Notes: a model not told the origin generated them from the letters alone. Positions 1,377-63,825 are shown, counted from the first letter of the whole stretch. The stretch: DNA of 63,825 bases, filler included, from Perkinsus olseni (GCA_013115125.1; 5 parts of 5 records of this genome joined end to end with filler, not necessarily neighbours in it); one strand, 5' to 3'. Numbers and translations are program-made.

Positions 1377-3429
1377 ATGGCGACCTCCGAAGCGCCTACG
1401 GTGCTTTCAATGGGCGGATTCCCGTTCACTCCTTTGGAGATCTTGGAGATAGGCGTTATAATGATATTGGCGTTGCCTTTCATCGTTATTGGAATCGCTG
1501 CATCTTGCATAGTACACTTGCTGCAGTATCCGGTACTACATGGAGGGGCGGATATGGGCCAGATCTTGCCAGAACGATGAGCCGCGAATGAGTCATTCGG
1601 AATGACAATGACCATACTTCTCCCGTAGAACCCTCCTTAACAAGAGGTCTGAGCCTTATCAGTTACGCGACTTGGGCTACACGCAGAAGCTGACCCCAGT
1701 GCGAGCCTCTCGGTCCGAGTGAGAATTGTGTTCCTACTAGCAACATCCAACATATGATAGTTCTGATGGTTCAGGTACGCAGTGGTCACAGGGGCTTCTA
1801 AGGGACTGGGCCGAGATGTCGCTCTGAAACTGGCCAGAGACGGATGGAGCCTTGTGATTGCAGCGAGGAACCCTGATCTTCTCGCTGACCTCAAGAGAAG
1901 TATTGAAGACTTATATGGAAAAGACTGCAAGGTCATACCGGGAAGATAATTGTGGGACGGGCCCGGCGCTCCCGCTTCTGATCAGAGCCACCGGTTTTCG
2001 AAACTTTATCCTCCAATGAGTCTGTGGGAATCCCCTTTCCGCGTTCACTGGTGTTCAACAGGTCATTCCTGTCGCTTGTGATCTCGGCTCTGACGGTGGG
2101 CGCCGCACACTCGAGAATGTCGTGAAGGACCTGCCGATCACCCTTGTGGTTCTGAACGCCGGCTGTGCGTATACCCGAGACCTAGTCAATGTGTCAGAGC
2201 AGAAAATGCGTGATATGCTAGGTAGGGTTGGGATCTACCACGATACGCAGGATGCTGGTTTTCCTCTGATCTCTCCTGAACAACTCAGAGATTGATCCAA
2301 GTACTTTGCTCAGGTATCAATGTCGAGCAGCAGACCTATCTATCTCAGTAATACATTAATTATTCGGGTTTCAATCGTGTAACCACCCGTCTCATCATAA
2401 ACATTGTGCACACGATTTAGAAAGTTTCGCCTTGCACCAACTTTACGTGGTGCAACCGTTCGTCGTTGCTTCCCTTCCCCGGGGATTCACCAACCGCTGA
2501 CTTTGTTCGTCCCTCGTACGTTTTGGCCTGATATCCGAAGTTTTGTGCATTTCAGTTATTTCCTCACACAGCACTTTGTTCCCGGTGGGCGAGGACGGCT
2601 CTGCATCGTCAGCTCCATAGTAGCCTATTCTCTAGGCAGTGCCAATTCCCTGTACGTGGGCTCATGCCGAGCATCAGTTCAGTTCATCGGCCTCCATCAG
2701 ATACTTTAGTGCTAAGTCGTACCTCTCCCAGTTTGGCCGTTCACTAGCTCATGAGTGCCGTTCCCTGGGCTGTGGGGTCTTGACCATCCAGCCAGGTAGG
2801 CTGGTTGCGGGATACTCTGCGGTTCTTATTGAATGATCCTCAGGTGCAATGGCCGATACTAACTTCAGTTCCGCTGGGGACTGTGAGAACTCAGCGATTT
2901 TCAAGGTAGTAGAAGGCACTACTATTTCTCCATTGAGCCGTGATATGCATATCGAGGGTTGAGGGAGGAGGAATACGGATAAAGTATCTTGTTTCAGCTT
3001 CCTGGCGCCCAGATGAGCTCAGCCGACGTCGCAGAGGAGCTAGTCAGGCGGCTCCAAGCAGATGGTACTAAACCGGGGTTGATTTTGGCCGAGCGTGCGC
3101 GTTTGGAGCGGACGCTCCCTGTGGACAGAAGTCTCATTAGAGTTACGTGATCATAGTAGACTGAGGTCGTAAGGTTAGTAGAGGCACTGTCGAATCCACA
3201 GTGGGAACGGAGGGTGTAGCGCAAAGGATGGGGTCTCAGATGCTTCCGAAGCTACTGGTTGCCATACAGTTGGAATTCTGAACAAGATACTCGTTGCAGG
3301 GGGACCTTATCTCAGTGACAATCTTGCTGGGTTCGTGGCTAGGGTACGATGGGGAGTCCGACACTCGATGCGCATAGCCGTCCAGCATCCTTAAAGGATG
3401 CTTCTTTTGTGAGGAAAATATTTGTCTAA
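1377..3429 (+). CDS. Short-chain dehydrogenase/reductase, multi-exon paralogue of the gene at 1-292 (3' end approximate)
   Basis: Exons 1377-1532, 1663-1718 and 1775 onward splice to MATSEAPTVLSMGG...LQYPLRDLGYTQKLTPVRASRSEYAVVTGASKGLGRDVALKLARDGWSLVIAARN. Later exons give VLNAG, IVSSIVA and the catalytic YFSAK (YxxxK). Confidence 0.85.
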
Positions 3430-12736: not shown

Positions 12737-12755
12737 CAGCTCGCACGATCACAAG

Positions 12756-34943: not shown

Positions 34944-35099
34944 GCACAAGCGGACGGTGCGCTGTGCTGTGATATCAATGCTGAACAAAAGAGGAGTGGC
35001 CGACGCCTAGGTAAACGCAACGATCATCGTGCCACGATGATCGTGGTCGGCTGATGCAATACTAGAGAGTCCCTAGCAGCGCAACCACTGATCGCCTAG

Positions 35100-37100
35100 A
35101 TGTAAAGAAAGAGAGCTCCTCTTAAGAACTAAACGCAACTCGAGCAGGTTGATCGGGGAGAACATTGAAACGCTGAACATGAGCGGAATAAACGCTTACG
35201 CAGCATTGTTATCCGGTACAGCAGCTCGCTCGTGGTCACCACACAACTCATTCTGCCACCACACTGTGCTGGTGGCCACTGGGCCGGTCGACCGAGACAA
35301 TCCACGGCGCGAAAGTACCTGATCACACGACCGTAAGGAACCGATGAATCGATGGCTCGCGAGAGCCTCTGGTCCAGCTTCTGGGCTCCGGAAGCGCGCT
35401 GCGACGCTCCACCATTCGGGCCTATGGCTATCGTTAAATTCCAGGCCCGCCCCTGGCACAAGTTGCTATGCAACCCACGCCCCGCACATGGTGTGGCCAA
35501 CACCACGGTAAATGTATGATCAACACAGAAGGGCATTGAAACTTTTCGTTAATTGCGCTATGAACATGGGGTACCATGAAACGGAAAGTTTGAGCGGCTC
35601 GAACCGGGAGCAACTGGGAATGAACTTGTCAACACAGAGAGCTTCACCGAGGTCAGTGATCTCTGAAGCTTGTGACTTAGGTCTCGAACGAACCGCTCGA
35701 CACCCTGATTTTGCTGTGAGGTGACTACATTATGTAGTGTACATTCCAATAGCTCCATTCTACGTAGTACGTATGACGCTCAATCAGCGTCACAATTGTG
35801 CCCAACTCTGCGTCAACCTCAACTGGGACGATCCTATCAAAGGTACAGAGAAGCTTGGTGCCGTCGTCTAGCTACTCCACCATCACAAATCCACGACACA
35901 TACTCTTGTGAGCATGGCAGAGAGTCTGCGCTCAGGAATCCGAAGCAGCCGTTCGCCAAATAGCGAATAGCCACCAACAGTTTGTTCATGACGGCGCACC
36001 AGTAAGTCGAGGAAGGAACACCTAAGCTGGTTTAGGTTGAGACTCACGCTACCGAATCTTCTGTAGTACATAGCGCTGTAGGGCCCCCCTCATGGAGAAG
36101 ATGCGTCCCAAATGGGGGGCGCCCAATATCCGGAACGCATGTTAAAGCCAGGAATCTCACATCAGTTGTCAATACCAACTGGGAATTGCCAACGGATCGT
36201 TGCCAACCCGGCAACGTCCGCTGACATCACATGACAAGTCAGCTCAAGGCTTCGGTACTTGTGCGGGTAGTCGATATGACACCGGCCATGACACTCATGG
36301 ACCGCGGCCGCAAGGCTATTGCCCAGCCGCTGGCAGCGGGTCTGGCGCTGCCGACGCTGAAGACGACGATCCGAGTCGGGGGCCCCTACCCAGCACAGTG
36401 TGTGAGGTGGTCGCCGACCACTGGTCGGCACCTGCTACTGTGGCGCCATTCCATCGACGAGGCAATTCCGAAAACCATGTTCGACTAAATCCATCGAACG
36501 AGAGTAGTGAGGATCCAAAACCTCTAACGGAAAACGGACAGACGAATTCGCTGAAAGGCATTCAAAGAAAATTGTCCAAAGACTTTTGTCTTATGTACTA
36601 TGTTTAATGGCGAGACGAGGTCCGTTGCCCACCGTAATCTTTGCATTCTCCTCATCACTTGGAGCCGATGTGATAATCACATTGTGATTGTTGAATCTGC
36701 GCGCATCGAAATCCTACAGGAGAGCCTTCTCAGACTGCGAAGCTGATCGCCGAGCAGCAAGACACCAGTACGGTCGAACCACCAATGAAGCGCCCGAGCC
36801 TCGGGCCTTTGCCGTGCATACCTCGGGCCCCGAGGTATGCATGGCAAAGGCCAAAACTGAGCTGAAAGACTCGCGGACGGTAAGGGAACTGGAGAGCAAG
36901 AGAGAATTGGAGAGACAACACAAGCAATAGATGGTGTGAAAGGAGACAGGGTTAGTACATCAACTCTGCCAGGAATTAGTAAACTACAGTTGAAGGAGTA
37001 GTAACGAGAAACTGACGGTGAACCAGCAGCACTCGTGACGACAACGGTTGCAGCTACTGAGGCAACGAGGGACAGGCTCCAGCCAGCCGTTAACATCATA
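35100..37100 (-). CDS. Possible multi-exon secreted hypothetical protein
   Basis: MMLTAGWSLSLVASVAATVVVTSAAG signal-like start near 37100 followed by GT-AG-bounded Cys-containing segments. Not resolved. Confidence 0.25.
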
Positions 37101-38496: not shown

Positions 38497-38497
<1 letters not shown>

Positions 38498-40306: not shown

Positions 40307-40378
<72 letters not shown>

Positions 40379-40900: not shown

Positions 40901-41279
40901 CCATATGATGGTGTTGTTGGATAGGTGGGAGACTCTACTAAGGAGAGGCAGACGATAATGATGTGTAAGTGAGAGTGACTCGCATCACTCCAACGGTGGT
41001 ACCAGTGATACTAAGGAGAAATTAAAGTGTCATAAAAGAATCTGAACCAAAGTAAAACGAGTCCGTATGCTTTCTGTTGTCATTGGGAATGCCTCATTAC
41101 TGTATGAGATTGTCTTTCTTATTGAAATACACACGACATTCAGAAACAGCGGTCACTAATGTGATCCATCATCATCGTCGGACATTGTTGTTATCGTGGG
41201 GATATCATTTCCCAATAGGGAAAAGTAATTACAACAAACGACAACATCAGCCTGTTTCGTAATAAGAACAATCTCTTAA

Positions 41280-42230: not shown

Positions 42231-42928
42231 GTTTCATTCAAGTAGCATCATAGTCGGTCATACTACCACAACTACTGTACCATCATGCAACTGCGGTAAC
42301 TTCACAATCACCCCTCTGCCACTCGGAGACTTGATACACCATCGTGTATTATTATAATAGCAACAACAATGGACGGTGGTCCAACAACAAGAGAAGTAGG
42401 AGACAAGACTGGCAAAAGGAGCTGGTGTGTACGTAATACGAGGGTGCTCCATGATCACCATGCATCGACCTTAGATTTTTCATGTGCCACTAGACACCCT
42501 TACAGTATGTAGTTGATGAGTTCCTAACGTTCACTATGTGATGGTATGGGACGGATAGTATTGTTAATGATGACGTTACAATTAGTGCCAGTGGTATTAT
42601 CGTCATTAGATTCATTAGATTATTGTAGACGTAGGATCTGACTTTGGGAATACTATGCTGGTGGTGTTGAGTACTGAATTATCACCACGTGTGTGGTACG
42701 TAATAGTGCCAACACACGTGTCCATATTCAATAACCATCACCACTAAGATACTGAGGAGGCTGCGTCCTATCACTTATAGGTATGTTGTTGTTGTTGCTC
42801 CGTAGCATGATAATATCATTTCTCTAACTATCAACACAAGCAGCATGACGCCTTACGTTGCCATCATCGTAGATGATGAAACTTGGTAAATATGATTAGA
42901 AGACTACCAATGGTAGACAGCATCGTCA

Positions 42929-46240
<3,312 letters not shown>

Positions 46241-46285
46241 GTATGCAAGATAGTGACAGGTCATTATCATCGGCACAAACATCGG

Positions 46286-46819
46286 CTGTCACTAAATTCT
46301 CTGTCCTAATCACTAAATCTAGCGCGCGCCCAACTGATCGATATCTGCGCGCTTTCTTACTGCTGCCGCCTCTTCCGGACTCCGGAATCCGGAGCCGATT
46401 AAAGTGCCCTGGGGTAACCCTTTGGGTTTATGGTTGCCTTGGGTAACCAGAAACGGTTTCTGATTGCCTTGGGCAACCCTTCGGGTTCCTGGTTGCGCGC
46501 GCCCAACTGATCGATATCTGCGCGCTTTCCCACTGCTGCCGATTCCTCCGGAGTCCGGAGCCGATTAAATAGCCCCTTCCGGTTTCGGGTTGCCTTGGGT
46601 AACCCTTCGGGTTTCTGGTGGCAATTCTTTTGTTTTTCTGCTGAGGGCCAACTTCATCACCATGCCGAGAGCGGAACGTGTTCGCTGGTTGTATACGATG
46701 GGCCATGTGCGCTATGAGCAGTGCAAAACGCAACACGTGTGTGGGGAACGCGGCGCGCAGATATCGATCGGTTGGGCGCGCGCTACTTTTAGTAATTAGG
46801 ACGGAGAATTTAGTGACAC
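46286..46819. mobile_element. Non-autonomous TIR element (MITE), about 534 bp, with roughly 65-bp imperfect TIRs and a putative 4-bp TSD (TCGG)
   Basis: The left end CTGTCACTAAATTCTCTGTCCTAATCACTAAATCTAGCGCGCGCCCAACTGATCGATATCTGCGCGC mirrors the right end. TCGG occurs at 46282-46285 and 46820-46823. It is a GC-rich island in an AT-rich contig and has an internal direct duplication. Confidence 0.8.
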
Positions 46820-46829
46820 TCGGTGGACG

Positions 46830-49080
46830 TGCCATTATCATCATCACGGCGGCAGCGTTAGAGGGTACTACAGGCCATCATCATCATGTTGATCTTGATG
46901 ATGATGATACTCAGGTAACATGATGATGTATCGTCAGCAGCAGCAGCAGCAGCAGCAGCACAGTCTCTATAATGATGATGATGATCAGTGATTCATTCAT
47001 TGATAATGATCTGAGGTGATTATCGATGAATAATTACACCACCACCATCATCACCATCACCCTCAGAATCCATGATGGTGATAGTAGGGAGGGGATGTGG
47101 TGGGATATAATAACGATGTTATGGGAGCATCCCTTACCTACTAGATGGGCTAGATGCTATTCTTACGATAATATGGAATATTATTATATCAATAAAGATA
47201 AACAACAACAACAGCAAGGAGGAGAAGTGGAGGAGAGTGATAACGACAGTGGTGGATGGTGCTGCTGTTGTTGGAATCATCCATTAACGCCATATTATAG
47301 ACAATTAATGGCTATAGTGAGGGTGGTAGATACTACTACTACTACCGGGAATAACAACGCTATTATCACTACACAACACCTAGAACATACTATCGATACA
47401 TTGAGGTCATAACAATACCACCCCTTGGACTACTCCTACTACTATCATATGTCTCAGGAATCATATTGCGGAGGAGCTGGATACATGGCATGGCCCGATA
47501 CCTGCAGTGGTCCATGGGGGGGAGAGGTAGTATTACTAGCTTGCTACACTTGTTACGGTACATCGTTACCGTCTATGATCATTATTATTTTAGTAATATG
47601 ATGGATGATGATGATGCACCGGGTGGTATGTATTATTATTATGTTAACTCAATAGATGGTATTACTTCATGGGAGGATCCTAGAGTTGATGCCCAACTAA
47701 TACATGCAATACAAGTTAAGGTTATACAACATATTGCTCACATATTCAACATACAACAACAACAACAACATCCTACAACAGCAGCAATGGTAGGGTGGGG
47801 TAGACCTAGTGTGGGTGGTGGTGGTACAATGTTGTTATCATATTCATGCAGGCATATGACGATACTTATGATGATAATGCAACGGATAGTAGCATGATAA
47901 TACCAGGAGATCTTGGTAAGATAGTTAATAAGAAAGTAAAAGGATATTTATCTGGAGTATGGCCTTCCACAGCAGCAGCAGATGATTATGATTATGATAC
48001 ACCCGACTTTGGCAGTATTAATGATGATGACGATGATGCTGCTGCTGAGGTATTAGTAATAGCAGTATTAGTAATATTAGCGTATGATAGATACTGAATC
48101 TCGATGATGAAAGGTGTGGTAATATGACAGCACCCCATGATGATGATGAGGAGGAGGAAGGGGTGTATTACAACAATGATGGGTAAGAGTAGCATAACTA
48201 TCGATATCATTGCAAGTTGTTGTGTCCATCATCCAGGGCCATTGTCCCTTTACATGATGACGCTGTCAACTATACATATGGTGATACCGTCGATATAACG
48301 AGAGATGATGGCGGCGATGGAATATTGATGAGAGGGAGGAGTGGTGCTAGTAGGATGCGGTATAATACATCATTCACTCTATCATCATTAGGAGTATCTA
48401 CTGATGATAATAATATGAGTACAGTAAAACGTTCCAACTCGATAGGAACTTATAATAATAAACGCAGTGGGTCATCATTGATAAGGGATACTACGGTAGG
48501 AGTAGTACTACCACAACACCACCAACAACAGAAGCAGCAGCAGTGCTATTCACTGTCATCATCATTGTATCCGTCAGATGTATCATAACCAAACAACAAC
48601 AACAGCAGGAGGAGGAGTGTTAGTAGCGGATGATAGCATAGAAGAGCTAGCAGCTAGACAACTGGCATCATCAGAATCCACGCATGAAGCTTATACCCGG
48701 TACTAGTAGTAGTACTGATGCTGTGTACATTGATGATGGTGTAGGCATGTTGAGGATGAGAGAGAACAAGCGAGGTTGATTATGGTACATAAAAGGGATG
48801 AAAGATATCGGACACTACACAATGAAACGCAACTGCATGCTGCCATGAGTGTAAAGGGAAGTGGAGAGAATAAGGCTGCCAACAAAAAGAAGAAAAAGAA
48901 AAAGAAACATGATAGCAAAAGGAAGAAAAGCAATAGTAATAGAGGTAGTCGTATTATGATTGATCATAACCTCTACCATCAGGATCATCAGTGGACGATA
49001 ATAAAAATAATAATGCGGAAGATGATGATGATGTTACATCAACATTGGAAAGGATAAAGTTACTGACGAAGAAATTGAGT
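46830..49080 (+). CDS. WW-domain protein with low-complexity tail; multi-exon, approximate limits
   Basis: EHPLPTRWARCYSYDNMEYYYINK...WNHPLTPYY and YYYYVNSIDGITSWEDPR are WW-like motifs. Confidence 0.55.
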
Positions 49081-49214
49081 ACTCAGTAGTTCTACTACCA
49101 TTCCATCATTAAGCATGTGATTACCATCACCATGGTAATATTGGTATAGTGTTACAGTCAGTGTTAATTAACATCATCATCACCATCACTAGAAACGATA
49201 ACACCTCATCATCT

Positions 49215-50302
49215 TTATAAAGTGGTATCACCATTTCTACAGTAATGATTCAACTTATGAGTCAGTGCGGCCTTATCATCATCATTCAATGGTATAACTT
49301 TACTATACCTCCTCCTTATATTCATAATAGATTCCAATAATATTGCAGCAGCGGTGCACACATTAAGACTTTCTACAACACCATACAAAGGTATATAACA
49401 TCTCAAATCAGCACAGTCCCTGATGATATCTGATATACCGCACGACTCTTGTCCAAATACAACAGCCAATCTATCAGGCAGTGTACTAGTAATAGTAGTA
49501 GGATTGGTAGTGTCAAGTAGGTCATGATACGATACAGCCTGTGGTGATACATCAGTTGCCCATATTTGGTAACCTCTGCTATGGAGATCGTTGATAGCAT
49601 GATAATGATCATTGAACCTTGTTACCTTGAGATATCTGATCGATCTCCTACTTACACCATCAGCTGTCTTCTTTATTCTCATCTTATCATCATTACTATT
49701 CCATGATGGCAACATATATAACTGATAGATACCCAGAGCATCGCACAGTCGATACATACCGCTAATGTTATGAATATCTCTAACACCATCTAGCACTACT
49801 ATTACACCATCATCTCTGCTGCTGACCACCTTATCGACATCAACAATAGCAGCAGCAACACCATTCTTAGATGACGACCCAAAGCCGCTAGCAATATCAT
49901 AACGATGACGACGATGAACCCCTCCTCGTCCTCCTTCCTGTTGTAATATTGATAATGTATATTGTAGCCTAGATCGTCTCCGAGGAGTAAGGTATATCCC
50001 CTTCCCACATACAAGTGCAGTTATCCATCTCAGAGTGCCATCAGAAGGTGGGGCGGCATGGGCAGCATACTGTAGTAATCTCGTTATAGCCTTATCAATG
50101 ACCATCGGGTAAAATAGAGTATTGAACCATTGTTGGTAGTCATTACCAGTTGTTGTTGTTGATGATGTATCATCATTCCTACTCGCAATCATCACAATAC
50201 ATTCTACCACCCAATCTACACCTTCAACCAAATCATCAATCAGACATGATGGACCATCACACCCTTTATTATCCATCTCCATCATAAGCTTGCCAACCCA
50301 TA

Positions 50303-50350
<48 letters not shown>

Positions 50351-50839
50351 CGGTATGACTACTATCAGTCTCCAGGGTTGTTGGGGTTGATGATATTATT
50401 GTTATATCATACACATTGAGATACTTAACGTTATGCCCATTAGGATGGCAAGAATCCCCAAGCGAAGCAGCAGCAGTACCAGCAGTACCAGCAGTAGTAG
50501 TAGCATCATCACATCGGATGGTGTAATCATCATCTCCATGAACTGATGATGATTTCAGCAGTGCCCTAACTAGCACACCCTTGCGAAGATGTGACGTGGT
50601 GGTGGAAGTTACGGTACGACTAGCGGTCGTAGGATGGTGGTCGGTAGCGAGTAGTTGATGCCTGAATACCTTGATATCATCGTTAATGTAATAACTTCTC
50701 TCATCCTCATGATCATTCCCGGAAGGATCCTTCATTATCATCTTAAGTATACCATCCACCGGCACAATAATACCAAACCCTTTCTTGTGATCGAAGAACT
50801 TAACACGGCAGATTATCGAATAATAACAGCATGGACCAG

Positions 50840-50873
<34 letters not shown>

Positions 50874-51028
50874 GGCATCGTGAGGGTGGTAGAGATTAGT
50901 GAAAAGAACATTGTGATTACCATCATGAGTAGCGTTCAGCATGATTCTCGTATTATACTCGCTTTTGCTGTTGGTGTTGATATATCGGGCAGATGATTGT
51001 AGAGGATGATGGAAGAACGATGGTTGAG

Positions 51029-51031
<3 letters not shown>
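49215..51031 (-). CDS. SpoU/TrmH-family RNA 2'-O-methyltransferase with an N-terminal cold-shock-domain-like segment; 5' end uncertain
   Basis: VVLDGVRDIHNISGMYRLCDALG, VVFGQESCGIS and YIPLYGVVESLNVCTAAAILL are SPOUT motifs 1-3. CRVKFFDHKKGFGIIVP resembles CSD RNP-1. Confidence 0.8.

Positions 51032-51101
<70 letters not shown>
51032..51101. repeat. (CAA)n microsatellite at the contig end
   Basis: Read directly from the sequence. Confidence 0.95.
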
Positions 51102-51201
51102 NNNNNNNNNNNNNNNNNNNNNNNNNNNNNNNNNNNNNNNNNNNNTTAATTAATTAANNNNNNNNNNNNNNNNNNNNNNNNNNNNNNNNNNNNNNNNNNN
51201 N
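51102..51201. other. Assembly gap with artificial linker
   Basis: TTAATTAATTAA at 51146-51157. Confidence 0.95.
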
Positions 51202-53106
51202 CTTTTTTCGAGACCTCACGCCGTGAGGCTCACGGACATTTACTGGCGCCTGTGACACCCCAACTCCTCCGAAGTTTCGCACTGGTGGGTCACAAGCGTG
51301 AAGCTGCGGCAAGCCTTCAGCTCACGGCCTCAACATGGACCAGTGAGTGGTGAGTCACCACTGGTGACCAGTCACTGACCGCCAGTAGCCCGGAGCCACT
51401 CAACGCAGTAGGCGTAGCCAGTTTCCGGCCGAAGCTTTCGGCCCAGATTGAAATTCAAACTCAAAGCTGGGCAACGAATGTACGCACCTGGCAGATACCA
51501 TGCGCTTCTGGGGTCTTATCTATTTTGGGCGAGCGCCATCTTGATCGCATTTGACTGCCTTGTTAACTCTTCGCGAGAAGTAGCTAAACCGAGTAATGCT
51601 CCGTGTTTCTTATATATTCAGCGAGTAGTAAGCCAATCATATGATGGCACTCATATTCAATCTGGCTCAGTCCATTAATTAACATGGTATTCTTCAAAGA
51701 GAAAACGGTGGATCGTGAGAGACTATGTTAACTTACGCGGAACAACAAATGAATAACAGTTCAACGGTCAGTCTGACTGACTTAGTCAGTCTGGTCGTGC
51801 CAGATGATATGGTACTGCTGGGGATGAGAATGTCTTGAGTGTTTAACTATCAGGCCGCGAGTGATGCTGAAATAATAATTTCAAGGACCTTTTTATAAGG
51901 TCCTTATATCTTCGTGTCTGAGGGCCTTACTGAGAGCGTCTTAGAGTAAGTCTCATAGATATTAAAATATGAGGGATTAGCCAGTGGTTTCGCGCCATAC
52001 ATTTTCTTCAATTTCAGGAATAAGAGTGGCAAGGCGGTCCGACGAATACCGATGCTCTGTCTACAATGTAGACAGAGCAATGTGGACTCTACATCCAATA
52101 ATCGAACGGGGAATCTGTCGAGCTCCGACGGCGAAGCCAGGAACCCGTTGAGATCTGAGCCTGCGATCTGAGTTAAGTCCAGAGGTGAGCTTGCGACGCG
52201 AGTTTTGTGCTCGGTCCATAAGAATCGTGGGCGCATTGCTTAGATATTTCATCAGGAGTCCCTCGTCGGTCCTGCAGAGGTTGATATCCCTCGTTTGATT
52301 TCATGGGAAGATGAGTGGGACTTCGTTGGATTCCCCAACCTCGTTGGATTCCTCAACCGCAGATGAGTCTCCTGCCTCGTTGAAGGCCATTGCCAATTTG
52401 ACCAGACGAGTAGCATCGACCTTTGGCGACGAGTCGTCGCCGACGACAATACGCCTATGTTCAAGGTCCGTAACAGCAGAGCTCCTAGAAAGAATAAGCC
52501 TTCTACCGACGGCTACTGCAACTATATCTGTTGCCAGCACGTTGCGTGCGGGGTACAACTTCAGGCAATTTTGGACTGTTCTATTGAACAGACTCGGGTC
52601 AGAATTTACAGAAATCGTGAGTTACACAGTGTACACAGCGACGTGAGACTGTAACTTACACTCTCACGTTGCTCGCCAAACAGCCGTCGAGGAGTCGCCG
52701 ACTGATGAAGGTGCCGCCTGGCGGTAAGAAGTACGTCAAGGTCCCGGCTCACCTGGACCTGGCTATGGAGCAGGCTAGTGTTCTGCTAGTTGGAAAAACC
52801 TACGAGGTAGTTCGAACTCATCACACCGAAAGTGCTCGTTACCACTAAGATGCAAAAAAGTGAAGGTGTTGCAAAAGTAGAGGTGTTGACAAAGTACGTG
52901 TGTTGCCAAAGTACAGAAGTTGACAAAGTCCACCATGTTGCCCAAATTCCAACGTCCGCAAAACTCATATGTTATGTAAGTTCGACGAGTACTCTTGTTG
53001 CAGATGTTAACGAGTTTGCTATGCAAATGTGTTGGATTCGTCGCCCTGTTGTCAAAGTACCTATGTGATAATTTGACCCTGGTGAAATCCAACCACTGTT
53101 GTAAAA

Positions 53107-54150
53107 GCTAATGCATGCGTTGATGAAGTTCACGGACCAGTTGAAAAAGAATGCCACGTTGTAGAACAACGCGTTGCTAAATGTCACGTTGCCGAAGTTA
53201 ATATTCCCGTTGGGAATGTCGTTGTTGCCGTTGCCATTTCACCAGAGTTGTTATTGTTGGTGTTGTCGAAGTTCACTCACCCAGATAAGTCTGCGGGTCA
53301 GAATTTTCGAGTATGTTGGTTATCTAACCAAGTCATCTGCACGACTTGTGAGAAGTATAAATACCTGGCTTTTGGAGAAGACTTGCCTGCGGATCTCGAC
53401 AAAGTCGGCAAATTTGATATTGGACCAGCATTGGATGCAGCGAGGCGCCGCACATTGCTGCAATCACTCGAACGACATAGCAATGTGGAAACTCATCGCC
53501 GGTGCAGAGAGTTCGGGGAACGGGCTCAGAAGGACAAAACAAATATCATCAGAATGAATGTAGCTAGGATGGCCTATGTTACGATCACTGAAGGCGATAG
53601 TTTTCGCCGGTTCGAGCGTAACCCCTCGGTCCTTGCTCTCTCTGGCGCTCTGGTCGGCGATCTCAATCATTCTCGTAAATTCATATCGTCGTTTGCTGTT
53701 TGTCTAAAAAAAGAGCTTCTGGCTCGGCTCTCTTACCTCATCACTGCACCTCGGGGGTGCTTTGGTGATAAGCCCTCCCCGATGGGAGCAGCGACTGATA
53801 AAGTCACACTGGGAAGGAGAACCTTACAAGCTGCTTCTGTGAGTACCCTTATAGATGGCAAGATCACGGTTTACTTGGTTGGGGCACCACCAGCTATTAC
53901 CAAAACTGGTGCTGCTTTGGCGAAGTTGCTGTTGGAAACAATCGAGGCGGTGGGCCTGCCGAGGGACTTCGTCAAACAGAATTGCGTGAGCCTCTCCACT
54001 GACGGCGAGTATGTGAATTTAGGCGTTGGTGACAAGCTTAATGCCCTCCTGGGATTGGAGGAAGTTTCTATCTTGCGTTATTCTTATGATAGGCCATCTC
54101 CATGATGTCTCGATTCGAGACTCTCGAAACCTACTATCAGTAAGAACATA
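53107..54150 (+). pseudogene. Decayed DDE transposase of the hAT/Dada-related group; frameshifted and C-terminally truncated
   Basis: Zn-finger-like ICTTC...RHSNVETH, GDLNHSRKF, first Asp in ATDKVT..RRTLQ and second Asp in STDGEY. At about 54090 TATGATAGGCCATCTCCATGATGTC reads YDR-x-HLHDV across a frameshift (the [C/D]xxH motif). The catalytic Glu region is not found. Confidence 0.7.
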
Positions 54151-55591
54151 AGAATTTCTTATGTTTGGAGCAGCTGAAGCTCAGCTGCTGAGCTCGTCCA
54201 ATTCATCTATGCCACAACCCCGGCCCGGGGTCAACAGCAAACCTGAAAGAACTGCCAGCTCCCAGTTGGAAGGACTATGCATAATTCAGCCACGACTTGA
54301 AGGCGTCGCCTTCGAAATTTATCGGTTGGGTGGCAGCAACTGGTGGCTATACGGAGTTCACTTCTTTCCAGGAAGACGAGCCCGTTGTTGGGTGATGGTC
54401 CGCAGAGGGGCAAGGGACGTGGTGGCTGATATGTACATCGGACCCACTACAGGGATGATCTCCTCCACGGAAACCGAACCTAGCGGGGGGCGTCGTTTTG
54501 GGAGCCGTCTAAGGCTGGTGTTCCATAGCCTACGGAACACCAGCCATAGTCGCCCTAGGATCTAGGACCTACGGGCCGCAGGTCCTGCATCCAAGGGCGA
54601 CTCACTAGAACTCTGCCCTTCAACACGGGGGAGGCTATCTAGTGCTGTCGTGAAATCTTCGCTGTGCGCATCAGCAATCTTTCTGTGGACACCGTCTGGA
54701 ACCAGAACAAGAATGTGAGGGTGAATATTCAAAAGAGCTTAGTGGAAGACAGTGATGTGCCGGGGAAAAGCGGACCCTAGAATAAGAGATTGAAGAGATT
54801 GAATCCAAGAGATCGGAGTTAGTATGGATGCTGCCAGCATCCATACTAACTCCGATCTCTTGCATCATGCTGGCAACACAAGATACTTTGAGCCAGGCTC
54901 TTTGAGTCAAAGATGTGTTGCACGCTCACATTAACGCAAACTTTGCGTCGCATCGTATCTTTTCGTCGCAAAGATACGATAGTAACGAGACTCTCGTTAC
55001 GAAAGCAAGCTCCGTTGAGCTATCTAGCTGATGCTGCGGTCCGAGAGGAGTTCAACCACGGACGCCCGGCTGCTCTGAAGGTAGGCCGTCAGCCAACTCG
55101 GCTAGGGGTGGTCCTGGACCACTGGTCCATGATGCTCTGGTAGTCCCTGCTTGATATCTACCAGAGATGGATAATCCAATGCAAATCCATCATGGATTTG
55201 CATGAAGTACTATCGTGAGACACGAGCGGATGGGCTCTATTGACAAGATCGGGGAGAAGATCAAGGTCAGTGACTGACCTAAGGCCAGTGACCTTGCATC
55301 CACGCCTGTAGCAGGATCCTGCTACAGGCTTGTATGCGCAGGAACTACTCTTTTGTTCTCGACAGGAGTACTAGGTTGATTGAGACGACTTACTGGAGTA
55401 TCACGCAGTAAAGCTGGATCGCAATATTGAAAGCACCGCACCGAGCCGAAGCCTTCCGAGCCTACCGACAGGATCGGGTCCGACCCGCCGGGTGAAGATG
55501 GTGAGATAGAGCCCTCCATCGCGTCATGATGACGCGATGACGCCGTCATCTCGACCCGGAGGACCTCCGTTAGAGCAAGAAATCTAAACGC

Positions 55592-55663
55592 GGGCTGAGT
55601 CGAGAATCGAACACAAGACCTCTCGCTCCGAAAGCGAGAATCATACCACAAGACCACACAGCC
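55592..55663 (-). tRNA. tRNA-Pro-type body with anticodon TCG; probably a pseudogene
   Basis: GGCTGTG TGGTCTTGTGGTATGATT CTCGC TT-TCG-GA GCGAG AGGTC TTGTG TTCGATT CTCGA CTCAGCC C. There are T:T mismatches in the acceptor and T stems. Confidence 0.75.
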
Positions 55664-55792
55664 TCAAAAGACATGTCGTAGAGGAAGCTTGCGCGCTTCT
55701 GTGTCTGTCACTAGAAGCCGCGGGCCTCCGAAGACGCGGTAGCAACTTCAACGCGACTGATTATCTAGCTCACACTTCGAACGATGTGGCAA

Positions 55793-55881
55793 TACTGGAA
55801 CCGAGAATCGAACTCGGTACCTACTGCGTGTTAGGCAGTCGTCATATTATGACGGTTATTAACCAACTAGTCCATTCCAGC
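55793..55881 (-). tRNA. tRNA-Val (AAC) with a 15-nt insertion in the D-loop; probably inactivated
   Basis: Acceptor GCTGGAA/TTCCAGT, anticodon arm ACTGC CT-AAC-AC GCAGT, T-arm CCGAG TTCGATT CTCGG. Length is 89 nt. Confidence 0.8.
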
Positions 55882-56099
55882 AAGCTGAAAAGGCATCTCA
55901 TTTCATCATACCTTCTCATTCATTCTTGCGCGCTAAGCGCGCAAGCTTCCTCCCCCACATGGACGGGTCCGACCAGGAAGATAGGCACGGGCTGCTAGGT
56001 CGAGTCTAGTCCATCGGACAGCGAGGGTACCTTCGTTTCCGAAAAGATCCAAGCTGTGGAGCGTGGTAACAACGGAATTCTCGTTGAACCAGATATTGA

Positions 56100-57144
56100 G
56101 CCTCAATAATTGAGGTTACCAACGGAACTATATCTAATGATGATCTCCATGTGGGTCTCACAATTCAGACCGCTATTCGACTCTATTATCATCATTAGTT
56201 TGTTGAAGCGGGAGTTGTCGACAAGGATATTGAAGCCTTCAGTAAGCTCTCTGGCCTTGCGAAAGTCTATGGTTGGGATTTCGTCGGTGAGATTGGCAAA
56301 AGTGCACTCGCGTTGGGACGAAATGACTTTACCTATTTATGTGTTCGCATGAGTAAAGATAAGCCTGCTGAAGGGAGGGCTACAGGTAGTTGATTTTCAT
56401 AGTAAGTAATGGATTGGTTAGTTCCATCAATATTTAGGTTCTCGTAGTCTTGAGCCATCGGATCCCTCCAACTCAAGGGCGGGCTCTGTAGCACAACCTG
56501 AGTTGATGGTAGCCTCTCATGGGAGCAAAGAGGGTAATAAGAAGAAGAGAGGGCGTGGTCGCGTTTATCCTTCGTGGGTCACGCAATTGATGGATGATAC
56601 TGTTTTTGAGTCCGTGCAACTTCCATATCGGATGTTTTGACGAAGCTTCCTTTTTTCTGACGTTGCTAAGCATTTGAAGTATTGGCGGAGATTTCCAGCT
56701 GTCGTTACAGCTAAAGTTACAGAAGGTGGTCATCCTGATATCCAACGCAAAGCTGTTCAATTTAGGGATTTCTATCGTGAGGGTGGCTTTAATCGGTTGT
56801 GTACCCGATTAAGAGAGTATCCGCAGAAGCATCCCGATGACGATGGTGCGCAAGGGGTTCGTATGGTCATCAAGCGGCTGTGCGAGTTTGTTGTTGATTG
56901 TGGTAGTAACTTAACAGGGCATGTGTCACGTGCCTCTGTTGAAGACGACAGGCAAAGGAGCAACGCCGGCCCGTCTACCATTGCACCGAAGTGCTGGGCG
57001 TGCAGAGAGGCAGTTGGAAGGTGGTCCACGCGTCTCCGCAGAACCACTCCTTGCGACTGCCATGCGCAAATTAGCACTCCGGAAGTCAGTGATCGTAACG
57101 CAGCTAGAACTAATATCATCATCGGAAACGACTTGCTCAAGTAG
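56100..57144 (+). pseudogene. Degenerate coding remnant of unknown family
   Basis: Protein-like frames interrupted by stops (TIQTAIRLYYHH*FVEAGVVDKDIEAFSKLSGLAKVYGWDF; KYWRRFPAVV...FNRLCTRLREY). Confidence 0.25.
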
Positions 57145-58570
57145 TGCAGGATTGTGTGACTACGTCCCCTGCCGCGACGGTGTCACCCTAAGTAAAGCCT
57201 GCGGCCTTCCTTTCACAAGATAATTAACAGGAAACCTTGCAATACTTTGAAAACTTCTATTCCTCGTTTCCCTTCTGCTTCTCATGTCCTTCAAGGACAC
57301 GTAAAACAATCTGTTCCAGGTTACTATCTGGACTATCCCCAAGGTTGAAGTCCCTGTATTAAATACAGTGTGTTTGTTACGCGTAGGTTACGGAGCGATA
57401 CCATGTTGACGAGGATGTGATTCTTGTGTTATCTCAATCTTTTGGCTGTGCGAGTGAAAACGAATCGCTACGCTACACTAGCCAGACTGGCTCTGTCTGA
57501 CAGGGCCTGTCACCTCGATTCGATATTCTTGAATGGCGGAAAGCTCGCCTGCCGCGAAACCGGACAAAATATCCACTGAGGCTCCGCAGTATCTATGGCC
57601 ACCGTTCTCTTTGTCTAACCAGGGCGTATCGGCTCGGTCCATGCGATTATAATCTCACGCTTGTTAGTTATTTCTCCGGTATTATGAGACCGATAACAGT
57701 GGATCCCGGCGGAGAGGAATTCACGAGACTAGTTGCGGAGCTACGCACGGAAGTAGACTCTCGTCGAACGCGTGCTCGAGGGCGCCAGCAGCAGTCTGCC
57801 CGAGAGAGTCTTGATCGGAGCTTGGAAGAGCTAGATGAGCAGATTCAGCAACTAAGGGAGAAACCGATGCGGACTGCCGAAAAAGGCATTCATGTGGTGC
57901 GTACTACGTGCGTTTCTTGCTAGCTCCCTGCATCTGTCCTCCTCTTCGTAATTTTGACCAGACTGGTCACTGTACTGGGTCGCGGTATCGAGTAATTTGT
58001 CGGCGGGTAGCACTCAACTGAGCTCGGGCTCGCACACGAACACACGAATCCTGAGCCACGAGCGCCTGGGTTCGTGACCATTACACCTGGTGTGCCTCTC
58101 TACCTCAGGAACCCACGAAATTCTTTGAATGATGAGAACATTACGACACGATAATGTACCCTCTGAGAGGGGCCCTCTCTGAGAGGGGCTCTCTCGTGCG
58201 CTTCAGGCCTCCCCTGAATCTGCGAGATTCAGGGGAGCTTCTGGTTTGACAGTGTAATGAGGCAGTATGTCCGGTCACCGAACTTTAGTTGTAGAGAAAT
58301 CACTTTTAATGTTTCGATCATCGGCGCGAAGTCGCCCGGTAGAATCTGCGTGCTGCTCGCGCGCTGAACTCCCTGTTTCTCAACCTTGGAGATCGCCTCT
58401 TCTCCGCTAACGGGTCTCATGATTTTTTGTTTACTTCTCTAAGAGTCTTAGACTAAGACTGTCAAATAGAGACGGATCAGTCTCGTTGACTAGTTTGGAG
58501 TCCGTAGGCGCGACTAGCGAAAGTTATAAACGAAGGAGTGGACCGTGTGGACGATCGAATGAGGAGTCAC

Positions 58571-61500
58571 ATGAGCCAGCTGGACGATAATATACCTCTA
58601 AAATCCCAGAAGTGAGTATCCTCCTCTCGGGTAATCCCACTCGTATTCCGCCGCAAAGTTGACTTTTATTCTCAGAGAAGACGTCTTTCTTACTCCTGAG
58701 CTAGGGTCGTCAGATCGGTTTCCCGATTTCCCGCGGGGCCTTCGAGGGAGCCTTAATCAAGCACGCGAGATTGCTAAGACGATAGAACAGAACGTTATTT
58801 CCCGAGGTCGGACGAACTCGCAACGCCCGCCAGATTGCACTGAGACGCTTCGTATCATTTGCGAGGAGTCTCCTAGTTGCGGCGTTGTCGATCATGATGA
58901 TCAGCACAGCTACCGAGTGAAAATGAAAGTGCTAGGAGCTTCGGGCTTACCCGACATGTCTGACGACAAGTGGCTCGGCGGGTGTTGCGACGCCTGTGCT
59001 CGAATTGTCTTCAACGGAGAGATAATAGAGACGGCAGTCGTCGACAACTGCAGAGAACCTGTATGGGAATCTACTCGTGTATTCGAGAGAATACCTAAGC
59101 GCGAAGTGTGGTTCGAGGTCGAGGTCTGGGACAAAAGGAAGGGGGTCGTGGCCGACGTCCTTATTGGTCAGAGCGAGAAGCAGAGTGCTCGGCTGGATCT
59201 GGTTGGTTCTCCCGCAATTCCAGCAGCAAGGATTGCCTCCATGCAAGGTTTTCCAGCATATGGGCGCTGATATCCGTGTGCCAATACGTAACGCCTACGG
59301 AGAGGGCAATCCGACGGTCACGCTCCGTCTGGAGGCTGAAAGGTGGACGCTTGTTCAGGTGAGCCCCCTTTGCTCATGAGACTCTCGGAGAAAACTCGGA
59401 GAAGTCCTTCGAGTGAAATCTATGCGACTCTCCGTTCTCTTGGAGAACGAAACACAGCTCGAAAATAAACAGCTTCGAAGTCGGTGGCGTCAAGTTCCCT
59501 AAATTCCGCTTCTCGCTCTCAAGTCCCCGTCGGTGCTGATCCTCAGTTCTACGTTACTGCACTCGAGGCCGCGGACGGCTCACATTTGGACGAAGACCAC
59601 CTCGTCAAGCTAAGCCTCAGTGAAGATTTCAATCAGACAAGCTATCTCCGAATACCGGACAGCAGTGTGCCTATCGAAGTCTCAACGATCGAGGTGCCCT
59701 TGAGCCGCTCCGATAGCAAGGTTAAGGCGGTTGCGAGGCTGATGAGAAGAGAACGATGGTAATTCACGTGAGATTCCTAGGTTTCTCACTTCGTTCGCTC
59801 TTGCTGTCCGCCGCGTCTTTCAACCGCGATTTACACAGATGTGAATAATGAGTCTCGTCTGGAGCTTCCCAATGATCTTTTTCACTGAGTCTGAAAAAAA
59901 CCCGACTTCCCAGAATTCTACTGCAGGTTGATTGGCGACCCTGTAGAGCACGAAGTTGCGATATTCGAGGTTCCGGATATCTCATTGGAGTCGCCGTTGG
60001 ATACTACACGCGTCTTGTCGACTCGTGATCGGCAATGCCACTACGAGCTCCACTTCTGCTCCCGACTTCATCCGGCGCGAGAAAACGGATTCGTCGTCCC
60101 GCCAGTACCAATGCCCGATAGTATTTGCGGAGAATATGTGAATTGGAATATTTGGGTTGACTATCCAGATAGATCGTCCCAATGTCCGGTCCACGACGGG
60201 AACGAACTTGTGGCGGAGGTTCGGTCTTCTCCGTTTTGGCAGGAGGAAGCTGATGGAAATTGCTTCGTCCCTGGTCGTATCCAGCTCAGCGGACCAGCTA
60301 CGCGGAATGAGTGCGAGATGGTCCTAATCTTTCGAGACAGCTCGTCGACTGACGGTGTAGCCTTTAGCCGGTTCATTGCTCGGGAGTCGGGCCCAATAAC
60401 TCTATTGCTGTCAACGCTGTGTAAGACTTGCTGTTGGACGCGTGTTGAGATCTCGTGTGAACTCATGCCGTGGATTTATATATACTTGGATACAGCTCGA
60501 GGTGAGGTGGAAGTCTCAGTTGGAGACCGAGGGCTCCGACTGGTCACTGGTTGTCCGATAATCGTGGCTCTTAACGAGACGTCGACCTTCATAAAATTCC
60601 CGCAGCATGAGAAGGAATTCTTTCTGCCGAACTACCTGCAGAGGGAAAGCATGCATCCAGCTTACGTGAACATAACCCTCGGCGATACACTGGTTCGTCT
60701 TAGCTGGAGCCTGTTGCCTGTTGCCCTCTCAACCACCCAATCGAAGATAGGCGAGAACTCTGGCAAGGCTCCTCCTGACGGAGGTCTTAGGCGACTGGCG
60801 TTGAAAGTTGACAGCGCGACTAAACTGCCAGCGGAGGCCTGCCTGGTGCGTCTCGATGTCTGTCCAAGGAGTATAGCGATCTCAGCTAGTGCGATGCCTT
60901 TGAAAGACGCGGATGAGCTCATCAAGATTGTGTGCAGAGAACCGCGATACACCAAGAGGGTCGAGCCAAGCCGCCATGTTATCTTCGAAAGTGATTTGAC
61001 CGTCGACTTGACAAACGGTTCCATTCTAGCGTGCACCGTCATCGACTCAGAAGGTTCAGCACTTTGTCTCGGGTACCTGGATGCGGATACTCTCGGGGTT
61101 GGGAGAGAGCACACTGTCTCACTGCACCCCGCCGGTAGCTTGCTGATTACTTCCTGCCATGTCTCCAAAAAATCGCCGACCGTGGTACTGCATGAAGTTG
61201 AACAGGAATCGGGCTCGGCTGGCCGTCTCGAATGCTTTGCTGGACATGAGGTGACTATCCCCGCGCCTGATTCACTCTGTTTGAGTGATAGAGCCCCTGA
61301 CGCCGTGGTAGTCCCTCCACCGACGGATTCCACTGGACAGGAGATCTCGGGACAAATGACACGAGATTTTAAGGAAGATCAGGCAATTAACTCCGCGGAT
61401 GGAACTCGCCCGCCGGTGACAGAGGAGTACGGTGCTGCTACAACTTCTCCCACGACATTGGGACCCAGTCCGGCGATCAGACCTGGTGTCGTAGCTGAAG

Positions 61501-62096
61501 ATTCCCTTAATCGAGAGTTCGAGCCGATCGAAGCATCCGTGATACCCAACTTAGAGCCGCGAATCACTGCAACTCTCCCTGAACCCGGTATAGCACTAGT
61601 GACCACCACGTCAGCAGCCCCTGCAAAGATTGTTCGCCGATCCGAGTCCACGTCGCCTTTAGGCTTGGCGCGGGTCTCTCTGCATGATAAGGTCTCTTCC
61701 TCGGGTGGCGCGGTCGAACTTTCACAGCCAACTTTTTCCCCGCGTTTCGGTGCCATGGGGACGGCCAGTATCAGTATCGATATTGAGAGCCTCCATCTGG
61801 AGGGAAGGGACCTCGAGCCCTGTATCTACGTGTGTGAGACGGAGCCTTTCCGAATTGTGGAACGAGTATGCAGTTCAAGGGCGACCTTCCCGAGATTACC
61901 GACAGGAGCTTCTATTTTCCTCACGGGTTCTTCTCATGGACTTTTGGTGGGATGTCATGAGGTTGACATTGAGGCTGTCACCGAGTCTTCAAACAGGTCC
62001 AGATTTCGTCTCATGGATTCAACAGGTCGGTTGACGGCTGCGTCAGGAGAGTTCAGGTCGAAGTTTAACAGCAATAGGGGCTCGAGTGAACTATGA
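58571..62096 (+). CDS. Large C2-domain-containing protein; multi-exon, 3' end uncertain
   Basis: YRVKMKVLGASGLPDM...DACARIVF...TAVVDNCREPVWE...FEVEVWDK...DVLIG (C2). A second C2-like stretch LALKVDSATKLP...TKRVEP...VIFE lies in the 722-aa ORF 59928-62096. Confidence 0.7.
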
Positions 62097-63825
62097 GCTC
62101 GTGCCGAAGTTGGCTCTGGTAGGCATTACCTGGCAGGTAATACCTGCAGACTGGTTTCTTTATAGCGCTCGAAACTGCGCATGATAAGGATGAGCCGTGA
62201 GAAGCTAAACAGTTTCCTGGAGAGATTCTCCCGCGTTGATTTCACACAAAATTAGATCCAGGTCGAATATTCCCGAATTCGAGCTACGGCAGGGTTATTC
62301 GGGACTTTTGGCAGCGAGGCAGGAATTCAAATTGAATTATTCAATCCGAGTCGTGGTCACCTTGTTGAGATAGTTTTCTCGGAAAGCCCATCTCGTGTGT
62401 TAGCGCCTGCTTTGTGTGCGCCTGCCTCTCTGGCATGACACTGGTATGAAGTTTGGTCAATGATTTATTGGCATCGTTCAATGACGAGATATTCCGATAA
62501 TATTGGAATTCTTCGGGTTTCCATTGCTCGCATCGCACAGCCCAAAAATGCTACCCATCAGCATAGTCACTATGGCACTTTCATAATGACAGTGTCACTA
62601 CGTGGCTGCCACGTACATATAATGCACTACGCCACGTCGTGGAATAGTGTATCATTTGAGCATTATGTAAATGAGTCTTAGATGTAAGAAATGACGGTGT
62701 ATCATACCATGACGAAGTGCGCACGGGGCGACGCACTGTTCGTCACGCACAGCAGGAAGCCGCACCGGTGGCTCAGAACGTTACAGCGGTTTCTTCCTCT
62801 CTGCCATCCAGCCCACCCCGCTCAGCCATGGGCTTCAGCGGAAGCCCAGTAATTCCAGAGTCTACAATGTCCTGATTTCACACCGGCGGCCACAAGACGT
62901 CTCCTTCTTGGCATTTCTAGTATGCAGAGCCAGGCAATTCAACCAGGCTAATTCGTAGTGAATACAGGACAGCAGTGCTGCCACAACGCCTGGTTCAGTA
63001 GGCTGGAGCCGCAAGCGCAATCGCACGTGGGGCACTACTCAACTCTCGTCAATGTGGTTGAGCGACTCTGTACATACATCAGAATGAGCTGATGAGCACA
63101 CGCACCGTTATTGACCCATACAACGCAGCGCTTTCGAGATCGGTGCGGGTGAAAAGAGAGATAGTTGGAGAAATACCTCCTGGAATCCAGATCCGGAAAT
63201 TCGGAAGCATATTCGAAGCTTTGAAAGTTCAGGCCTGCCAGCCTGGCAGTGCCAGGCGACACGACCATTTGTATGTCGAGTATGCGTCGCCGCATTCGTC
63301 TCCGCGCTAGCGTCCCCCGTGTCCCAAAAGGACTGTTCCGGGAATAGTGTTCTCGCCAAAGACGCGCTCACTACGCAAGGGAGCCCAAATCCTGTGTTCG
63401 GAGTCCGAAGCATACCGGCATAAAGTTCTGAGGTTGCCAGAACTTTGAAACCGGCAACCCGTCAGACGGGTCCCATCTCAAGTGCTCAACGATTGAGCAC
63501 TGCTCGATGAGCAGCCAGTGGCTGCCAGCCACTGGCCGCCAGTTACACGCGCCAGTTACTGTGATGCGCTTCGCTCCGCTGTGCTCGAGACGAGACACTT
63601 CCTACTGTAGGAATCCTACATGGATTTACATGGCTTTAGATGATTTAGTACGTCTCTTCCTGTGTGTTGAGTCCTATGTCATCTGATACACCCGAATGGC
63701 ACAGCATACTGGCCATAGAGTGTCCATCCCAATGGTTGACTCATTCCATTTAGGTGAGACACTTTCGCCGCTTGACGCCAAGCTAAAACTGAACATTGTT
63801 TGATCTCAGTGAGCAAAAGAGCACA

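Follow-up and report, generated by a model that had tools for sequence, protein, structure and literature searches.

How did a 63,825-nucleotide (nt) stretch of Perkinsus olseni DNA (GCA_013115125.1; the whole stretch that was analysed, hereafter the window) come to hold a dense field of short palindromes, each built from its own flank by one and the same rule? Perkinsus is a parasite of shellfish (clams, oysters) and an early-branching relative of dinoflagellates and apicomplexans. The basic motif, or footprint, is T[1-7] + rc(T[1-8]) + T[2-8], in which T is a site-specific 8-mer and rc its reverse complement, giving 22 nt in total that form two overlapping odd-centred palindromes with 7-nt arms and a one-base centre each. 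These palindromes are probably the excision scars of a transposon that duplicates 8 base pairs (bp) of target DNA and leaves hairpins on its flanks; as such, they are a record of frequent, recent jumping by an element that is not itself seen. The window is made up of five contigs of ~12.7 kilobases (kb) each (1-12755, 12856-25549, 25650-38327, 38428-51101 and 51202-63825, here contigs 1 to 5), and the range described in a first-pass annotation (51214-63620) falls wholly inside contig 5 (12,624 nt).

The 22-nt motif and its 8-bp rule

Perfect cases built on an 8-mer (k = 8, k being the length of T) number 17 in the window, with none at k = 7 or k = 9-13. Set against the mean of 30 dinucleotide shuffles, a scan over k gave 301 versus 249 at k = 3, 28 versus 16 at k = 4, 5 versus 0.7 at k = 5, 2 versus 0.07 at k = 6, 0 versus 0 at k = 7, 17 versus 0 at k = 8 and 0 versus 0 at k = 9-12, while the theoretical expectation for perfect cases at k = 8 is 0.00024. 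The first-pass annotation had foreseen such a sharp excess at k = 8 over shuffled sequence and other lengths, and the excess is present. All nine of the perfect cases that it listed fit the rule with the positions and 8-mers given for them, and its one-mismatch cases (51767, 57491 and 63457) contain exactly one mismatch each. The list was incomplete, however, lacking the perfect cases at 54107, 55108 and 56094 in contig 5 and five more in contigs 1, 3 and 4.

With mismatches allowed, the loci total 41 (17 perfect, 13 with one mismatch and 11 with two), compared with 0, 0 and 0.35 in 20 first-order Markov simulations. Of the 41 loci, 30 fall in contig 5 (12 of them perfect), a density of about 30 loci in 12.6 kb, and the signature differs between isolates. 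Open reading frames of at least 150 amino acids (aa) include 1 of the 30 loci with 0-1 mismatch, though covering 36.5% of the window; this depletion is partly circular, since a +14 insertion disrupts a reading frame, and the placement of the motifs in non-coding DNA by the first-pass annotation therefore holds approximately. In the perfect cases, all inserted bases derive from the local 8-mer (17/17), and no sequence is common between sites. The 23 target 8-mers examined are all different; position 2 is T in 11 of them and position 7 is A in 10 (25% by chance), a weak lean towards nTnnnnAn, the target consensus of hAT transposons.

Contigs from four public sequencing runs (X2, X5, X7 and X8; four samples from three studies) were aligned to contig 5. 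The public runs of one organism contain 73-94% of the words sampled from 51202-61201. No run is recorded as RNA, X7 being RNA by guess only, and one or more runs may derive from the isolate of the assembly itself, yet were assembled separately. X2 and X5 contigs span 54066-55077 and 57148-63279, as well as 55050-56942 (X2) and 55050-56952 (X5), with 0-1 differences, and these contigs, assembled from separate reads, reproduce seven perfect motifs and two of the complex footprints described below. Recurrence in contigs from other runs argues that the motifs are not an assembly artefact, and establishes the presence beyond the source assembly on which the earlier interpretation depended. The perfect footprints, which carry no strand assignment, are as follows.

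1585..1606, contig 1, perfect 22-nt footprint, T = CGAATGAC
35025..35046, contig 3, perfect 22-nt footprint, T = CATCGTGG
36407..36428, contig 3, perfect 22-nt footprint, T = GTGGTCGG
36668..36689, contig 3, perfect 22-nt footprint, T = ATGTGATT
46373..46394, contig 4, perfect 22-nt footprint, T = TTCCGGAG
51214..51235, contig 5, perfect 22-nt footprint 12 nt from the contig end, T = CCTCACGG
51347..51368, contig 5, perfect 22-nt footprint, T = GTGGTGAC
52426..52447, contig 5, perfect 22-nt footprint, T = GCGACGAC
54107..54128, contig 5, perfect 22-nt footprint, T = GTCTCGAA; in X2 and X5 contigs (54066-55077) with 0 differences
55108..55129, contig 5, perfect 22-nt footprint, T = GTGGTCCA; in X2 (55050-56942) and X5 (55050-56952) contigs with 0 differences
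56094..56115, contig 5, perfect 22-nt footprint, T = TATTGAGG; within the same X2 and X5 contigs
58438..58459, contig 5, perfect 22-nt footprint, T = TCTAAGAC; in 6132-nt X2 and X5 contigs (57148-63279) with 1 and 0 differences
62126..62147, contig 5, perfect 22-nt footprint, T = TTACCTGC; 30 nt past the stop of a 733-aa frame, in a transcript-like X7 contig (59926-62219)
62324..62345, contig 5, perfect 22-nt footprint, T = AATTCAAT
63235..63256, contig 5, perfect 22-nt footprint, T = CTGCCAGG
63511..63532, contig 5, perfect 22-nt footprint, T = GCAGCCAC; shares 4 nt with a one-mismatch footprint (63493-63514, T = TTGAGCAG)
63599..63620, contig 5, perfect 22-nt footprint, T = TTCCTACA; within a ~150-nt tandem-repeat unit (63562-63707)

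Several of these sites vary in ways of their own. One X5 contig has 22 extra bases within the 51347..51368 motif that could not be parsed, and an X8 contig over 52314-52621 has 14 gapped positions, which would suit an empty allele of the 52426 footprint. Around the last footprint, X2 and X5 contigs return from 63707 to 63562 across 10 intervening letters, others skip 150 nt, and depth is 7-8x single-copy; the stretch 63562-63707 looks like a tandem repeat of ~150-nt units, variable in copy number, at the contig end. Window self-BLAST, which returned few repeats overall, gave a tandem pair at 46322-46448 and 46495-46604 that was set aside because it does not provide a clean comparison of empty and filled sites.

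Longer palindromes, single-8-mer alleles and an interrupted tRNA gene

The same geometry extends beyond the 22-mers. Perfect palindromes with arms of at least 7 nt are odd-centred in 68 cases and even-centred in 3 across the whole window, where about 4 of each are expected by chance, and their arms reach 28 nt. Among the 47 pairs at apex distance 7 with a common 6-nt core, both inner bases are complements in 20, the other 15 classes holding at most 4 each. A general two-hairpin pattern was scanned for in the form T1-7, c(T8), left fold-back, right fold-back, c(T1), T2-8 (c denoting the complement), each fold-back being allowed up to one mismatch and no filler bases being left over. Five longer structures match, against 0.1 in 20 simulations; in all five the direct duplication is constantly 8 bp and both inner bases are complemented, with fold-backs of varying length. 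Across the complex and polymorphic structures listed here, fold-backs run from 4 to 28 nt under the same 8-bp rule, and such unequal fold-backs with a constant duplication fit two opened hairpins better than any replication-slip model.

36792..36835 (pair 36799/36828), contig 3, complex footprint, T = GCCCGAGG; fold-backs 7+24, one mismatch
52059..52094 (pair 52066/52087), complex footprint, T = GTCTACAT; fold-backs 13+7, one substitution
52621..52662, complex footprint, T = GTTACACT; net +34
54827..54873 (pair 54834/54866), complex footprint, T = GATGCTGG; fold-backs 28 (left) and 4 (right), net +39
54934..54973, complex footprint, T = ACGCAAAG; net +32, both apex bases being the predicted complements
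55166..55198 (pair 55173/55191), complex footprint, T = GATGGATT; fold-backs 5+12 without filler
55521..55550 (pair 55528/55543), complex footprint, T = GCGTCATC; fold-backs 11+7
52080..52087, empty site ATGTGGAC in the window; +14 nt in an X5 contig, where it forms a perfect 22-mer, and no gain in the X2 contig

Five indels between runs have a single 8-mer in one isolate or haplotype and the hairpin form in another, with gains of +14, +14, +39, +32 and +34. The first is the empty site at 52080..52087, which is located within the right fold-back of the older 52059-52094 footprint, and the +14 found in X5 alone is most simply read as a gain. The second lies in a divergent haplotype that replaces 55274-55344, where X8 reads GTGGTGG·CCCACCAC·TGGTGGG and X2 a single GTGGTGGG (+14). 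For the remaining three, an X8 contig omits exactly 39 nt (54828-54866), with the 28-arm palindrome gone and a single GATGCTGG left; an X8 contig likewise omits 32 nt (54935-54966), leaving a single ACGCAAAG; and the X2, X5 and X8 contigs omit 34 nt (52622-52655), leaving a single GTTACACT, where an X7 contig (52254-53136) has the window form. In all three the window shows T1-7, both predicted apex complements and T2-8. An X8 skip from 55894 to 55930 was also tried as a footprint and does not match the model, so not every local indel is of the footprint kind and the test is able to fail.

Footprints also cluster at the scale of nucleotides. The overlap of the 63493 and 63511 motifs implies two events 4 bp apart, and the X5 event sits within an older footprint; this event, inside 52059-52094, is the one case that supports nesting. 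Collapse of the 17 perfect 22-mers to their 8-mers exposed 0 older perfect motifs in a second round, as did five offset controls (0).

The palindromes at 58158-58195 and 35018-35046 are multi-arm zig-zags (three to five arms, 7-8 nt apart) that were not parsed into clean successive footprints and look like repeated events at one spot. The stretch 55296-55337 holds the sole long even-centred palindrome of the window, with 13-nt arms around GGATCC, and lies outside the odd-centre rule; other haplotypes carry 21 or 35 different letters in its place, and the organism appears to have more than two forms of such stretches, in several haplotypes. Behind 51693, the X2, X5 and X8 contigs have 18 extra bases that are absent from the window and do not follow the footprint rule.

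One decayed footprint lies inside a transfer RNA (tRNA) gene.

55792..55882, minus strand, tRNA-Val(AAC) gene broken in the D-arm by a decayed footprint at 55840-55861, T = CGTCATAA, two mismatches

ARAGORN calls this interval a 91-nt tRNA-Ile (minus strand), and its Rfam score is 42 bits. Deletion of 55847-55861 (15 extra bases) yields a canonical tRNA-Val(AAC). Contigs of other genomic copies depart at 55846 and rejoin after 55861 (loose-end consensus), and thus lack the extra bases. A canonical tRNA on removal, together with intact copies elsewhere, indicates that the single 8-mer is ancestral at this site and that a functional gene gained the palindrome by insertion. Genes for tRNA-Arg(TCG) and tRNA-Lys(TTT) were also called, the tRNA loci being 55592-55663 (minus), 55792-55882 (minus) and 1148-1220 (plus). 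Read depth of X2 over the contig 5 tRNA genes (55592-55882) is ~65x single-copy, suggesting that these genes are highly multi-copy.

Proposed excision hairpins and competing origins

The structures described above can be accounted for by a short series of steps. In Hermes, a hAT transposase, the first nick falls one nucleotide inside the flank. We hypothesize that insertion of the transposon duplicates the target 8-mer T and that excision seals each flank as a hairpin that has at its tip the complement of the base next to the transposon, giving a left hairpin T1-7·c(T8)·c(T7..T1) and a right hairpin c(T8..T2)·c(T1)·T2-8. Host nucleases would then open the hairpins off the tip, here at distances of about 4 to 28 nt. 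If both were opened at least 8 nt from the tip, their tails could anneal via the common 8-nt rc(T), and a putative step of trimming and fill-in would yield T1-7 + rc(T) + T2-8, with a net gain of 14 nt. Hairpins opened at other distances would lead to longer unequal palindromes, and joining via the direct T copies would be traceless, returning the site to its original form. If this model holds, DNA repair in the organism would either be strongly biased towards the long product or regenerate the target site. A lineage-specific end-joining route would be plausible.

This model resembles hAT excision. Ac/Ds footprints are palindromes centred on the complement of the element-adjacent base that arise from hairpin formation and resolution, and in yeast their arms reach 20 nt, with microhomology at most joints (PMC5873905, excerpt; sources so marked were available in part). 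TcBuster footprints follow the same logic (PMC3499496, excerpt). The 8-bp duplication, odd centre and complemented inner bases seen here are documented Ac/Ds features, and their match points to hAT-type excision. We therefore infer an element, of a hAT-like superfamily, and a repair route of long-range hairpin opening followed by microhomology-driven joining. A hAT transposon in the strict sense would be the leading candidate, a putative assignment that rests on chemistry and on the length of the target-site duplication (TSD).

The likeness to characterized systems is partial. V(D)J coding joints form when hairpin-sealed ends are opened off-centre, producing P nucleotides; those joints differ from the present scars in having no target duplication, in usually gaining 1-4 nt and in being a somatic programmed process. 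The hAT footprints of Ac/Ds, Tam3, Hermes and TcBuster share with the scars the 8-bp duplication, complement-centred palindromes, flank hairpins and joint microhomology (PMC5873905, PMC3499496, excerpts). However, the reported hAT footprints are heterogeneous, mostly with 0-3 added palindromic nt, and come from reporter assays or single loci, whereas here a single +14 product dominates, both of its fold-backs are at least 7-8 nt, and the signature is dense, polymorphic and genomic with the element out of view. Long Ac/Ds footprints in yeast (Lazarow et al. 2012, Yu et al. 2004, via PMC5873905, excerpt) have arms to 20 nt compared with 28 nt here, and concern a heterologous element in a reporter, unlike the genomic scars of the window. 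The chemistries of hAT, Transib, MULE and RAG are linked (PMC5499845). The MULE Muta1 resembles the present case in forming a hairpin on flanking DNA (43+43 nt), but does so with no offset, which would lead to even-centred palindromes, and more than 90% of its excisions in yeast are precise (PMC5499845). In the precise repair of mPing, copies of the target duplication guide the joint as they would here; there the direct copies anneal and the site is restored, whereas here inverted, hairpin-derived copies would anneal with a gain of 14 nt (PMC4561436, excerpt).

Several observations weigh against an excision origin. The density is very uneven, with one contig accounting for 12 of the 17 perfect footprints. 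The preference for particular target bases is weak (n = 23). Ordinary hAT excision followed by end-joining would be expected to leave many short classical footprints (T1-7·c(T8)·c(T1)·T2-8), yet these are at background level, with 2/21 at apex distance 1; the candidates at 925, 6856, 49622 and 58544 were dropped because apex distances 1 and 2 are at background (2/21 and 2/324). A search of the 63.8-kb window for an element with terminal inverted repeats (TIRs) flanked by 8-bp direct repeats returned 3 matches, all microsatellites, although five short contigs without an element do not show its absence from the genome. The single-8-mer alleles that the first-pass annotation predicted are borne out by the five indels, but the element-filled allele that it also predicted was not found among the other-run contig matches listed. 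Pfam returned no transposase family among 17 window frames submitted, and the one frame present in multiple copies (56641-57141) has a Perkinsus gene model as its sole match. Finally, gain versus loss is unproven for each polymorphism, as slippage between direct copies could delete a palindrome to one T. The hAT excision reading of the first-pass annotation thus stands on geometry, 8-bp specificity, the other-run reads and empty alleles, and falls short in that the scan of the window gave no element or filled site and the 17 Pfam-tested frames no transposase.

The alternative closest to the transposon reading keeps the chemistry and changes its source, which would be another superfamily or an undescribed or domesticated transposase, for example a relative of Dada or Merlin. 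We consider this unlikely but worth taking seriously, given that no hAT gene is among the Pfam-tested frames, that one decayed footprint lies inside a tRNA gene, and that Dada and Merlin-related sequences are known in P. marinus (PMC3706591, PMC8101967, excerpts). Dada-tIA_PMar even has an apparent duplication of 8 bp (TAGCTCAG), though its authors favour 6 bp (PMC3706591, excerpt). Yet Dada has a TSD of 6-7 bp and, in families with defined ends, a single specific site in small-RNA genes (PMC3706591, excerpt), whereas the 23 targets here all differ and lie mostly outside RNA genes, and duplications of Dada size gave 2 (k = 6) and 0 (k = 7) matches. Dada itself was rejected on these counts and because the tRNA scar is at the D-arm sequence CGTCATAA (TTATGACG in tRNA sense), whereas Dada is reported at TAGCTC in the A-box. 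For the Merlin-related open reading frames of P. marinus, the source reports no recognisable TIRs or TSDs (PMC8101967, excerpt), and the apex-complement rule is documented for hAT (PMC5873905, excerpt) and for no other superfamily in the literature examined. Dada and Merlin are therefore unfit to explain diverse 8-mers, although an undescribed relative of either may be the source. Two further superfamilies were tried and rejected. MULE/Mutator elements have TSDs of at least 9 bp, and here even-centred palindromes are unenriched (3 versus ~4) and k = 9-11 gives 0. The P-element has an 8-bp TSD and leaves remnants of its own termini at the donor site, whereas in the perfect footprints the inserted bases all come from the local 8-mer (17/17) and nothing is common between sites.

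Explanations that dispense with a transposon fare worse. Replication template switching, or polymerase snap-back during break repair, does create short inverted duplications of local sequence, and the 52621 and 54934 sites contain filler outside their fold-backs (inter-apex 26 and 24 nt, perfect fold-backs only 5+5 and 7+2). Such templated insertion fixes neither an 8-bp direct duplication nor a 1-nt complement at the inner ends, however, and both persist over fold-backs of 4-28 nt with 0 cases at k = 7 and k = 9-13; on this signature the mechanism was rejected and appears quite improbable. It is more improbable again that the palindromes are functional hairpins (protein-binding or RNA) under selection and the single-8-mer alleles deletions. 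The 62126 motif does lie just past a stop codon in a transcript-like contig, and slippage between direct copies can delete palindromes, but each motif is different and derived from its own flank, the motifs decay (13 one-mismatch and 11 two-mismatch loci), and one of them disrupts a tRNA gene whose other copies are intact. Least credible of all is an artefact of assembly, polishing or sequencing. The source is a draft of short unplaced contigs whose first motif is 12 nt from a contig end, but seven perfect motifs recur in contigs of other samples and studies that differ at 0-1 positions over 1-6 kb, and presence or absence varies between runs as the excision model predicts.

A broader form of the transposon reading may well hold, although we stop short of favouring it. 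It proposes that Perkinsus carries, genome-wide, thousands of polymorphic hairpin scars made by a low-copy, very active hAT-like or domesticated transposase, and that hairpin opening occurs far from the tip, the ends then being joined via microhomology in the inverted duplication. A possible cause is that the lineage has little or no classical end-joining or Artemis-type opening. Excision footprints are usually studied reporter by reporter and thought too varied and rare to be read from a genome. Hairpin-type excision footprints are themselves a known, textbook kind; what is new is the one dominant +14 product, its density and polymorphism, and the lack of an element nearby. The open literature searched, which did not extend to subscription journals or supplements, yielded no report of the signature in Perkinsus, nor of a genome-wide stereotyped 22-nt footprint in any organism.

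If the signature is genome-wide, vanished insertions could be counted directly, which would show how often a cut-and-paste element excises in a natural population. The scars would reveal how hairpins are opened and breaks joined in an early-branching relative of dinoflagellates and apicomplexans, and would offer cheap presence/absence markers for typing isolates of a clam and oyster parasite. They would also be a major, clock-like source of indels and new palindromes, and a readable record of past transposition. Under the transposon reading, transposons can make palindromes, disable genes (here a tRNA gene) and create hypervariable non-coding DNA without staying put.

Genes and other features of the contigs

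The contigs are separated by four spacers (12756-12855, 25550-25649, 38328-38427 and 51102-51201), each of 100 nt with the form 44 N + TTAATTAATTAA + 44 N and ~12.78 kb apart, indicating that the window is a chain of separate contigs in descending length order and not one locus. Pfam searches of the 17 window frames returned P-type ATPase, GT47, SpoU and C2 families and a few sub-threshold matches. In contig 5, the 733-aa frame (59895-62096) is 99% identical to a partial Perkinsus olseni hypothetical protein; it has no Pfam family of its own, and its relatives are found only in Perkinsus (P. chesapeaki, 35% identity). An X7 contig joins 59200 to 59926 (58676-59200 and 59926-62219), which suggests that a C2-domain gene has an intron of 725 nt.

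Split exons of P-type ATPases lie in the remaining contigs, together with a GT47 glycosyltransferase and a SpoU methylase. Three partial P-type cation ATPase paralogues lie in tandem in 25650-38327 (25650-26697, 30772-33222 and 37322-38327), their pieces sharing 70-95% DNA identity. Contig 4 is richer in AT (GC ~41% versus 52% elsewhere) and has long trinucleotide microsatellites, (AGT)n, (ACA)n and their complements, at its ends and in its interior (38428-38500, 40308-40378, 44249-44327 and 51031-51101).

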